Origin: Podarcis cretensis
Taxonomy: Eukaryota
Assembly: GCA_951804945.1 (NCBI GenBank)
Contig: OX638153.1
Span: forward strand, 31,372,001-31,436,000
Direction of reading: 5' to 3'
DNA: 64,000 bases
Part shown: positions 43,156 to 47,819 of the stretch, one piece after another
Position numbering within the stretch: the first letter of the stretch is position 1
How the letters are laid out: each line of letters begins with the position of its first letter
Made by a program: the position numbers and the translations under genes
Notes under the pieces: model-generated
Database searches by the model: none
What the model was told of the DNA's origin: nothing
Seen by the model: the letters and a program-made list of their open reading frames with translations, nothing else

Positions 43156-43576
43156 CAGGGATGTCCAAACGGTTGACCACTCAATCCCCAGGAGCTAGTG
43201 GTTGATCGTGGGCTCTTCTCCATTCGCAAGGGGAAAAGGAACTTCTGGCCCCGCGCCCTCACCTTGTCCTTCATTCGTACATAATCAGAAAAACAGAAGA
43301 CGGAGTTATCGCTGTGAGGTTTCTTGTTTCCTGAGCATGGATCGGTGAGCGACTTTTCCCTGGCCCCATATAAAAAGCTCCACAACTCTCAGCAGGCCCT
43401 CTAAAAAAAGCTTAAAAACTTCAATCTGGGCCCTCCCCAAAGCTCAACAACTTTGATTTGTCCCCCCCTTAAAAAAGCTCAACCACTTTGGGTCCCCCCC
43501 CCCAAAACCACGTAGATCACTGCCAGTTTTTTATTCTGGGAGTAGATCAAAGTCTCTTGGGAGTTGGATGTCGCTG
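43156..43576. mobile_element. hAT (Charlie/Buster-type) non-autonomous element
   Basis: TIRs CAGGGATGTCCAA / TTGGATGTCGCTG; perfect 8-bp TSD ATCTAGAT. Confidence 0.88.
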
Positions 43577-43693
43577 ATCTAGATCACAGAATTTCACCAG
43601 CTAAAAAAACAAGGCTATCAAATGAGGGGTACCTACTGAACAAAGAAGACTCAGGCAAGATAACTGAACCATGTGTTAAAACAGTGGAGGGTA

Positions 43694-45536
43694 GTCTTCC
43701 GGGTTAGCGCGATCTGGTTAATGGCGGATTCCCTCCGAGCTCCGGAGGGAATCGGCTCCGCTGGAGAAGGGTTCTACTGCGACGGCGACGCGGGGACCCT
43801 CAGAAACCGCAGGCGCTGAAGCCTGCGGACTTGGTGACTCGGCGGGCACCTTAAGCGCCCCCCGACCCACGAAGAGCCTTTTTAAAGGCTGCGGAGAGGG
43901 TACGGGGAGCGGCGTGGTGCTGTGAGTGGACCGCTACTGCAGTGGAGCGAAGCCGCGAGCCATGGCCGGAGACCGCTGACTTTCTTCCCTGAAATTCGGA
44001 CTTTAATTAATCCGTGAGTAGAATGGAATTTGGACTTTAAAATTTCTACCTTTGAATTCGGTACGATCGGGGGATGTGCTAAAGGGAAGTCCGCACCCCC
44101 CCTATTTACAGAAGATTTAAAGCAAGGACTGGAGAACTAAGGTGGAGAGTTTTTTCTTTTTGGTGTTTTTTAAAAGATAATATTTTCATGAGTTTGACAG
44201 AAGAAGATTTGTGCTGGAGAGTAAGAGTAGAATTTTAGAAGCTTTTGTCTAACCCCCCCCCCCCCAGACCCGGGAGTGTCCTGTATGCGAGCTGGAGAAA
44301 AAGGAACAAGGAGTTTGACAGCTGTCAAAGGAGCTGTCAAACGGGCAGTGAAAGTTAAAAATCTTATTATTTAACACCTCTCTGGACTAAATTTGTTATA
44401 TTTGAATTAAAGTGGTTGGGAACAGAGTAGTGAAATAACAAAGTAACGGACTGTTGGGAAAGGACTATTAAGTAACCAGAATCCCCCTAGGGGAAACATT
44501 GAAACACTACAATGGCTGCAGATGGAAAATTACAGGCAGAGATAGAAAGAATGTTTTTTCTCGTGGGAATGTTGCAGGAGCAGACTACGGCTATGAATAA
44601 ACAACTTATAACCTTGAACTCTAAAATAAGTGACTCTGCTGAATGCACAATGGACTTGACCGGAAAAAAATCTGCAGCTGAATTAGAAGAGATAACTTTG
44701 GAACAGGAGGAGAGGGAGTGGAGCCAGTACAGATGGAGAGTACCAACCAGAAGCCTACATTGTTAGAACATAAAGAAGAAGACCTTTGGATTACAAATCT
44801 GCGAAAGATGCGAAAGAGGAGGGAGGAAGCCCCTGGAACACTTGGAATATTTGAATTTAAAAGAAATAAGAAATATGATTGGGGCTTCCTCTTTGAGTAT
44901 GGAAGATCAGCTGACCTTTCGCAGCAGCTGTTACCAAGTACTTTGGATGGAAGAAAATCTGATGAGACTGAGCTAGAACTCCTTCGAGACCCGATGACCA
45001 ACAAAGAGGGCTACCAACAAAATCGGCAGAGAGAGACTGACAGAGACTTGAAGGCCTCAGATGTGAGGAATCCAGGCTAAAAACTGTTTTTGTGGACATT
45101 CATTTGGGAAGGGACAGAAACCGGGGCGGGGGGGGGGGGGAAAGAATTTTAAAAATGTTTATGACCTTTGTGTTTGATTATTATGACCTATTTTTAAGAT
45201 AAAAGGGAAATTCGTGGAAGGAATTTAGGTCGACCTTAGAAAAGGATTTAATATTTATAAGAAGATTGGATAAGTAAAATTTGGCCAAGTAATAAGAATC
45301 AAGTATTTTTTTTAAAATATATATATATATATAACAACAATATGTAAAGGATGAGAGATATGAGCTTGCTGAGCTAATTCAATTGAATTAGGATGTATGA
45401 AGGGGGGGGTGGGGGGAGGTCAAGAACTGGGGTTAGGAAAGTAAGGACATGAAACCTTATATGTGTTGTCTTTGTCTGTGTGTGTCTGTGTTTATAAAAT
45501 GTGAAAACCCAATAAAAAAAATTTATAAAAAAAAAT
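43694..45536 (+). mobile_element. Complete non-autonomous L1-dependent retroposon (HAL1/half-L1-like), ~1.84 kb
   Basis: 16-bp TSD AAAACAGTGGAGGGTA (43678-43693 and 45537-45552) at a TT|AAAA site; CpG-rich 5' end with CTTCCGG and AATGGCGG motifs; AATAAA plus A-rich tail; short ORF1-like frames, no RT. Confidence 0.85.
44512..45080 (+). pseudogene. Frameshifted ORF1-like (coiled-coil-like, charged) reading frame within the 1.84-kb retroposon
   Basis: ATG ORF 44512-44766 overlaps ORF 44718-45080; one frameshift near a GA-rich run (~44705-44720) would give ~190 aa; heptad-like LQEQTTAMNKQLITLNSKI. Confidence 0.5.
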
Positions 45537-47819
45537 AAAACAGTGGAGGGTAAACTCTTGCTAGTCTCAACAAGCCACTACAGGCAAATTATGTCTGACA
45601 CATCATAGTCTTTCCAAGGACTACAATGCATGGAGAGAATGATGGTTTGAAAGTACCTCCAAGTCGAAATCTCCTGGCAAATTGAAAGCTAACTCATCAG
45701 AGACATGGCTTCTTTCCCTGGGTGTATAATATTCTTCCATGTTTGTTCTGAGGTGATCCATCCCACACGAAAGAGTTGTGCCATGGATACAGCTTCCCAT
45801 TGGGACCAGCTCTCGGATCCTGAGTGTGAGCAAATTAGGGCAGTTTCTGGGAAATGGGGGGGGGGCTGATCCAAAATTAAAAGTGGAGGAGTGGGACTTG
45901 TTTTAAAAAAACAACAACTGGAAGTATCAGGAAAATCAAGTACCAAGTGAATTGGAATTGAGTGAGCGAATAAAGAATTAAAGAATGAATGCAAATTTAG
46001 CTTGTCCATATTCCTCTGGGGTGATCAAAGCCAAACTGGGATGTGAGCAAAGGTAGTGCCTTGTCAATTACATTTCTTCCATGATGATCACCATTATCAA
46101 CCAAAGGAACTGATAAATGTTGCAAGCTTGAAATACGTAAAGTAACTAAGTGATCCAATACCCAATATTATCCAAATTTCATATCTTATCTCTAGGGTCT
46201 GATATATTGATATCAAAAGGTATTGGCTCAGGGTAGCTATAGAGCCACAGTTCTCAGTTTTCATGTACCTCTGTTTACATTCAGTTATGACCAATAGAAA
46301 GAAACACATACACACACACACTGGCTTTTTTCCTGATTCCTCTCCAAAATCAAGAGTTTGTCATGACAAACATATAGTTCAGGGAAACATGCATTTTAGC
46401 AGCTCTGAGACAAAACCATTTGTGTGTGTGTGTGAACAAAACGTATCAGCAGAGACATCTGCAAATGGTTATTAAATATCACATGAGATTATAATTCAAT
46501 TCCACCTTCACCAGTAGGAATTTGTTTTTTGGTTTGTTTTTTGGTGAAGATAAATATAATGTAGAAACTAAACCACCCCTAAACTCTCTTTCGTACAACA
46601 CTTACTGCCTGCCTTACAAACAAATTAATAATTATGTGTAAACACACCTTTCAAGGTTATCCAACACCACTTAAAGATTTAACAGAGATGCCACAAAACA
46701 TGTATGGCCTCTCCTGAAATATTAATACACCACCATCAATGTTTCATCAGTTTGCTATCATATATCACCCTTGACAAACTTCAATCATTTTCAACCAGTT
46801 CATGAAAAATAGATATGTTTTCTCACACACCATACCAAGAATTTCTATACACTGCTACCTTAATTAATATCAATTATCCCACCCAAATAGAAAGTTCTTT
46901 ATGATTCCTAATCCAAAAGCATCCCTATGCTAGAAACATTTATAACAAATGTGGCTGGAATATGAATGTCAATTTGAAACATGTCAAATACTGAAAGATT
47001 AAATGGGCTCAGGATATTGGAGGAAACAGAAATCTCTGGGGAAAATATATCTGGGTCCCTAACATTCAGCGAGTTAACAACTCCATTTTGTTGTCTGAAT
47101 AAAAAGAAAAGTCTGGAAAGGCCTTTGGGCCCAGTTCCGTTTACAAAGACAACAGGGGAGAGAAAAGCTCTTTAATGAAAAAGTAGTTTTGAACTGTAAA
47201 GTTTCTGCAGCTCGTATGGCTAATTGGGGTTTAAGAGGCTCCCCTCCCTTTTAAAAAGAAGGATCCAAGGTATTTTAAACTCTCTCAGACTGCAGCCTTG
47301 GTGCAATTCCATGTTATGTACCACTGCCAGACAGAGAGAGAGATGGAGGGAGGGGAAAACAAAGTGCCTTTTTACTTTTAATTGAGTCCTATAAATGTCA
47401 ATCTTGTTTCTGAACTCTCTGAAATTCCTTCTTTTAGTGTGGAACTCCCTCTGGTTCAGGATGGGAATTGACTTCTTGTCACGAATAAGGTAATTAGTTC
47501 CTTCTTATCAGCGAATATGGCATTTTTATCTTATTTTTGGCTTGTTGAGAAACAAATACTCTAGGCCAAATTAAGCAGGATGGCAAATGCGACAGCTGCT
47601 ACTGGGGAGAAAGGAAAAATCCACAAAATAGCCAGGCAGCTAGCTCTCCCCACACAGTTTTGGAACGCCCAGTAGAGTTTACCTCTAGCATCTCATTTAC
47701 TGTCTTCATTTGCAAAATGTGTGCAGGTCACAGAATTCTGATCTCCTCCCTCTTCCCAGTCTGGGATTCCCCTCTGATTTGGTGATTCCAACCTTTGTTC
47801 TACTGGCAACATAGATAAG

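Follow-up and report, generated by a model that had tools for sequence, protein, structure and literature searches.

The window analysed here, 64,000 nucleotides of the Podarcis cretensis genome (assembly GCA_951804945.1, contig OX638153.1, positions 31,372,001 to 31,436,000, forward strand), contains a 1,842-bp retroposon on the plus strand at 43694-45535, flanked by identical 17-bp target-site duplications (TSDs) at 43677-43693 and 45536-45552. A first-pass annotation, made from the letters alone, had described a complete 1.84-kb RT-less retroposon, a parasite of L1 comparable to mammalian HAL1, with a 16-bp TSD at a TT|AAAA site. The duplication is real, but its length is 17 bp, the shorter count omitting a shared T; the TT|AAAA site holds at this copy, whereas across the family the target is only loosely T|purine/A-rich (25 of 30 copies, TSDs of at least 12 bp). 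An empty site is present in two other samples with the same organism code (X1 and X4), where contigs pass directly from 43676 to 45536; 1,859 bp are left out, the overlap is 17 letters, the 17-mer occurs once and depth is as in the flanks, so the insertion is recent. Summed contig depth over the element lies far above that of its flanks, but is no measure of copy number. Contigs matching the element also occur in three further runs, possibly RNA but possibly DNA, which were set aside.

The element opens with a CpG-rich 5' untranslated region (UTR) derived from L1 (43694-44128), likely an internal promoter for RNA polymerase II (Pol II) judging from its CpG content and its similarity to the L1 copy L069. 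It starts with the 5' end typical of the family, (G)GACTTCCGG, and AATGGCGG follows at 43720. The first 330 bp have a CpG observed/expected ratio of 1.07 and a GC content of 62%, against a CpG ratio of 0.32 for the window, which bears out the annotated intact 5' end. A splice-donor-like motif, CCGTGAGTAG, lies at 44012-44021 and recurs in L069 and in 12 of the 13 family copies examined; four of the six upstream ATGs in the leader sit 3' of it, so a 5'UTR intron starting there is possible. With its remainder (44129-44511), the leader extends over 818 bp up to the ATG at 44512, close to the 800 bp or so first estimated. It is followed by a degenerate L1 open reading frame 1 (ORF1; 44512-45080, stop codon at 45078-45080), 191 amino acids long when intact and broken here by a single 7-bp deletion at 44714/44715, much as the annotated frame of about 190 residues with one frameshift. 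Residues 1-40 (44512-44631) form a predicted N-terminal helix whose counterpart in L1 ORF1 is the beginning of the coiled coil, as indicated by model confidence, codon constraint and alignment. The C-terminal tail (44985-45080), ending ASDVRNPG-stop, stems from the end of the L1 C-terminal domain (CTD) plus its RA(S/T)DRRSP tail up to a deletion junction. The 3' part (45081-45510) comprises the last L1 ORF2 codons and L1 3'UTR, identified by dinucleotide-shuffle z scores, with G tracts at 45121 and 45399; an AATAAA at 45511 and an A-rich tail close the element (45511-45535). The 3' features were thus correctly read, as was the lack of endonuclease (EN) and reverse transcriptase (RT): no Pfam match rose above the cut-off in the three scanned frames of this copy. 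Rfam and tRNA scans of the element gave nothing meaningful, and no short interspersed element head of tRNA, 7SL or 5S type was found by them.

The element belongs to a large family. A DNA search of its own genome returned 38 near-full-length places at 93-100% identity (40 candidates scored of 3,246), so it is not single-copy, and in a protein search 150 of 150 scored matches, of 3,139 candidates, reached at least 92%. Nearly all fetched loci start with the same 5' end; TSDs of 12-20 bp, all different, accompany 25 of 30, the automatic call being short, false or absent at the other five. An open frame of 188-191 amino acids is present in 24 of 30 close copies. Searches with divergent homologs, the groups being sorted by eye, gave at least nine subfamilies in two clades, and dispersed copies number in the hundreds. 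L1 ORF2p copying is expected to leave 5' truncations and inversions (twin priming), and among 20 copies chosen by their 3' end, outside the first set, eight are 5'-truncated and two carry 5' inversions. Homologous proteins occur in Logan contigs and among hypothetical proteins of Podarcis lilfordi, and a hidden Markov model search of 1.84 billion representatives gave 11 matches, every one from this family, with no full-length ORF1 among them. Six sister-clade copies at about 4-kb spacing (G000:C13:41550831-41573222) probably represent a tandem segmental duplication. Old-lineage copies also lie in or beside L1-derived copies (L087:1977-3838, L086:4809-6759, L080:2975-4613), and L080 contains a second L1 family.

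All three parts of the element were compared with the L1s of the same genome, where young L1 is abundant (of 50,634 candidates, 150 ORF2 ends were scored and all 150 lay at 96-100%). L069, a 6.24-kb full-length L1 with a 17-bp TSD, ORF1, EN and RT, served as reference; residues 165-335 of its ORF1 match Transposase_22/Tnp_22_dsRBD clusters with a score of 0.92, and its ORF1 core matches human L1 ORF1p structures weakly (E 0.03). The first 435 bp of the element are 66% identical to the L069 5'UTR (449 columns, E 1e-39). The 3' part aligns with the L1 ORF2 end and 3'UTR at z 6.9 in the window copy and z 19.3 in the sister-clade copy L094 (300 dinucleotide shuffles each). The L094 alignment begins right at the CCGGG junction; taken alone, the opening 120 bp of the window-copy 3' part give no significant match (z -0.1). 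For the frame, a family protein profile aligned to ten lizard L1-type ORF1s with hhalign at 97.2% (E 4.6e-11, score 80), against scores of at most 18 in 25 column shuffles and of 16 when reversed, and still at 91.6% after three local-L1-family sequences were dropped from the ORF1 profile. DNA-level alignment of the frame to L1 ORF1 gave z 12.5-22.7 in five of five sister-clade copies. The two clades are similar end to end at the DNA level (60%, E 3e-84), and the 3' parts of the old lineage are monophyletic with bootstrap 100, although the lineage is not monophyletic in the 5'UTR tree; the window-copy clade is linked to L1 ORF1 because this similarity and the 3' monophyly tie it to its sister clade. 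The element owes its bipartite structure to a junction of the ORF1 tail with the C-terminal codons of ORF2, which sister-clade copies show clearly. At the level of sequence comparison, the element is established as an L1 internal-deletion derivative in which all three parts come from L1 and ORF2 has been lost; the annotated ORF1-like frame derives from L1 ORF1.

The DNA alignment places the start of the sister-clade ORFs at the L1 Met52 position and their finish at the RA(S/T)DRRSP tail. L1 residues of about 220-264 and 302-319 are missing from them, corresponding to about 40 residues of the RNA recognition motif (RRM) and 17 of the CTD, with domain limits inferred from matches of L1 ORF1 to human structures and to the Transposase_22/Tnp_22_dsRBD clusters. 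On this alignment, the losses comprise the N-terminal region together with the second half of the RRM and a portion of the CTD. The product is therefore no canonical ORF1p with complete coiled coil, RRM and CTD, and it lacks a positively charged region before the coiled coil (L003 net charge -8); its C-terminus reads RASDxR(S/N)PG-stop. AlphaFold modelled residues 1-40 of the family protein as a helix with a predicted local distance difference test score (pLDDT) of 85-95 and the remainder at low confidence (mean pLDDT 51). No folded domain appeared in the model and Foldseek found no match in the PDB; the parent ORF1, folded without an alignment, also gave a poor model. The best ESM Atlas match of the element protein, at 0.77, was uninformative. 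Pfam showed no match above the cut-off on the element proteins, but for Transposase_22 this blank says little, because that model failed on the parent ORF1 too and had no hit anywhere in the genome. According to PMC5940361, the RRM and CTD of human ORF1p bind RNA, its charged N-terminus is required for retrotransposition, and the conserved coiled coil alone suffices for trimerisation.

The frame has clearly been kept across nine subfamilies. A codon model fitted to 24 copies gave omega 0.62 and kappa 4.2, with a likelihood-ratio statistic of 35 against omega 1; codon models were used because Nei-Gojobori omegas (0.3-0.5) are biased low by transitions. Omega fell to 0.41 in both residues 1-40 (p 1.6e-6) and residues 161-191 (p 6.8e-5), whereas the star-like subfamily E, a neutral control, gave 1.08. 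In the tail, divergence between clades amounts to pN 0.24 versus pS 0.71. All seven indels between subfamilies within the ORF preserve the frame, compared with 33 of 170 in the UTRs (p 2e-5, one mis-anchored pair of 12 having been removed). Of the tests of the McDonald-Kreitman (MK) type, only a post-hoc one restricted to the ends was significant (34:34, p 0.03). Purifying selection on the N-terminal helix and the C-terminal tail is demonstrated, the sequence constraint being moderate and lying at these ends. The expectation of a continuous frame under selection thus stands as regards continuity and the ends, though selection is moderate and reaches only the two ends.

A second, younger ORF2-less family was found among 20 loci picked by L1 5'UTR, several of which belong to it; the loci assigned to this family are L087, L089, L091, L092 and L106-L117. 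Its copies are about 85% identical to current L1 and nest inside current L1 in both the 5' and 3' trees, and a search with its junction gave 40 of 40 full-length matches among scored candidates. A 15-residue RRM deletion is common to 12 of 12 copies fetched. Read from the L1 start, 12 of 13 distinct copies meet a stop by codon 18, with a shared one near codon 10, and six of the 13 are open from Met52 to the junction stop, where this family also ends SPG-stop.

Considering these results together, the element is probably a recent insertion from a high-copy family of HAL1 type, with a frameshift in this copy. The family would have originated when a lizard L1 underwent internal deletion but retained a truncated ORF1, and transcription from the L1 promoter with copying in trans by L1 ORF2p is likely. 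Pol II transcription from the retained promoter, followed by target-primed reverse transcription by L1 ORF2p acting in trans, is very probable, the copying being deduced from the TSD lengths, 5' truncations and 5' inversions. The role of the protein is more tentative. It would no longer package RNA alone but would co-assemble, during its own translation, through its N-terminal coiled coil with helper ORF1p, pulling the element RNA into the L1 particle and so bypassing the preference of L1 for its own RNA; by analogy with other elements, we rate this a little short of an even chance. Such co-assembly is the role proposed for ORF1-bearing non-autonomous long interspersed elements (LINEs) in PMC5786205.

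Several observations weigh against this interpretation or parts of it. The window-copy clade alone matches L1 ORF1 weakly (hhalign 35%, E 4e-4), and its ORF DNA gives no signal against L1 ORF1 (z 0.4 and 0.1). Constraint is near-neutral in the middle of the protein (omega 0.76 for residues 41-110, p 0.03, and 0.77 for 111-160, p 0.15) and slighter in the window-copy clade (0.73, p 0.037) than in the sister clade (0.60), while the whole-ORF MK-type test is null (fixed 118:72, private 221:134, p 1.0). The helix that survives represents the beginning of the coiled coil; heptads adjacent to the RRM, described for mammals in PMC5940361 as the conserved trimerising ones, fall in the weakly constrained middle. 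Among ORF-spanning copies chosen by 3' end, only six of 14 have an intact ORF, so the protein-ranked samples overstate intactness. In 21 L1 loci, the search for a helper met no ORF2 that was intact in a single frame. Finally, given the early stop in the young family, ORF1p may be dispensable.

Much of this evidence would suit the main rival, a different account of the same L1-derived family in which the frame is a licence for translation, serving ribosome loading, RNA stability or nearness to newly made ORF2p, and the protein sequence matters little. Frameshifts are strongly selected against and yet the middle is near-neutral; the null whole-ORF test, the 114 of 191 residues below pLDDT 50 and the stop tolerated near codon 10 by the young family point the same way. 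Protein-level constraint is nevertheless indicated by the low omega at both ends and by the excess of synonymous change in the tail, and R(N/S)PG ends 70 of 72 extracted ORFs, though the extraction pattern demanded this motif. We regard the translation-licence account as somewhat unlikely.

The resemblance between the two families suggests, on sequence grounds, convergence on a single design. A bolder proposal seems unlikely: that L1 parasites in this lizard twice arrived at the same minimal ORF1, which restarts at Met52, sheds RNA-binding domains, retains the beginning of the coiled coil and has its C-terminus fixed as RASDxR(S/N)PG-stop, and that the protein is an adaptor hijacking helper L1 particles and not an RNA chaperone. 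The design could also have been shared without convergence, if template switching carried the junction of the old lineage into the young family, or if the two junctions only mark a deletion hotspot and selection played no part. The breakpoints lie within about 2 nt of each other in ORF1 and 19 nt in ORF2, with CAGAT microhomology at the site; internal deletions are frequent in the 20 loci chosen by 5'UTR; and an ORF2-deleted L1, L093:119-2427, has a third junction, 6 nt from the young one, and likewise ends SPG-stop. Set against this, the sequences flanking the young junction both resemble L1, the family nests in current L1, and the deletions in L084 and L079 are each single among 40 scored candidates, compared with 40 of 40 for the young junction, two against two being a small sample. 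A hotspot or template switch seems unlikely. Simple decay of an unneeded ORF1 in the young family is a further explanation in place of convergence, and L093 may be the ancestor of that family or a third origin.

The C-terminal NPG-stop invites comparison with 2A/StopGo peptides, whose core, D(V/I)ExNPGP, is read through into a downstream frame; here it would be such a peptide or a termination-pausing one keeping the ribosome on the RNA. ASDVRNPG resembles the core and is found unchanged in 11 of 11 proteins that are 48-63% identical, and a PG-stop ends both amplified families. Neither the Glu nor the final Pro of 2A is present, however, DVR(N/S)PG being followed by a stop. Since the tail can be traced to RA(S/T)DRRSP of L1 ORF1 together with the junction, and since the residue before PG may be N, S or D (SPG in the sister clade and subfamily E, DPG in some homologs), such a function is highly improbable. 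Two last readings, a processed pseudogene made from a host mRNA and an isolated L1 copy with an internal deletion, would fit the TSD and A-tail as any L1-made copy does, but are of negligible probability given hundreds of dispersed copies, the many subfamilies and the L1 homology of every part; the element does go back to an internal deletion, yet that deletion is old and gave rise to a long-lived family.

Other sequences near these subjects also deserve mention. Seven 5'-intact L1 copies (L076, L077, L079, L084, L085, L086 and L088) carry differing internal deletions, several with their own TSD, and in L079 ORF1 is fused in frame to the ORF2 C-terminus. Splicing was considered as the cause of the L1 deletions and rejected, no clear GT-AG ends being visible in 10 junctions judged by eye. 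Two Podarcis muralis gene models (P0051 and P0052) join TRIM-type RING/B-box domains to L1 ORF1 sequence, as an artefact or a real fusion. Just upstream of the element, another high-copy repeat with three direct repeats of about 30 bp and very high contig depth occupies 43407-43590.

HAL1 is an L1 derivative encoding only ORF1p, with several independent mammalian origins as outlined in PMC5753468, PMC5786205, PMC13756887 and PMC4859970. On those descriptions, the present family resembles it in being non-autonomous, in combining L1 5' and 3' parts and in bearing ORF1 alone; it differs in its lizard host and in an ORF1 without the N-terminal region, shortened in RRM and CTD and unrecognised by Pfam. 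Every testable feature of HAL1 was found, namely L1-clade derivation, an ORF1-derived protein only, bipartite structure by internal deletion and amplification with TSDs and poly(A), the link to ORF1 holding firmly when the family profile is used and weakly when the window-copy clade is taken alone; the HAL1-like classification of the first-pass annotation therefore stands. HeT-A (Jockey clade) and Ag-Sponge (CR1 clade), as presented in PMC5786205, are likewise ORF1-only bipartite LINEs, for which multimerisation of the ORF1 protein with its counterpart from the autonomous element has been proposed, but they belong to other LINE clades, and the element here shows no telomere or site specificity. 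Lizard clade-1 L1s, in the account of Boissinot and Sookdeo 2016 (PMC5381506), share a long 5'UTR starting GACTTCCGG...ATGGCG and have a parental ORF1 with coiled coil, RRM and CTD, but are autonomous, unlike the present element. Section 9 of that paper gives the 5' consensus as GACTTCCGGTGN8ATGGCG, which the element's 5' end resembles with a longer spacer; the words 'nonautonomous' and 'non-autonomous' are absent from its main text. A full-text literature search, with Repbase, Dfam and supplements outside its scope, yielded no squamate HAL1 or RRM-deleted HAL1, and an earlier repeat-library entry for the family is quite possible.

The genome offers a natural series running from full-length L1 through a young deletion family to an old lineage that continues to insert, its ORF1 cut back to helix and tail; the series shows which parts of ORF1 evolution retains and supplies ready constructs for test. 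In HAL1, ORF1p evolution was reportedly found to be faster by Bao and Jurka in 2010, so the erosion of ORF1 follows a known trend. The family accounts for a group of 'hypothetical proteins' annotated in Podarcis and points to a source of recent insertion polymorphism. Why ORF1-only LINEs retain ORF1 and obtain ORF2p despite the cis-preference of L1 is a matter of proposals in the literature cited above; if true, the adaptor reading would be a natural minimal answer to that cis-preference and possibly a dominant-negative brake on L1.

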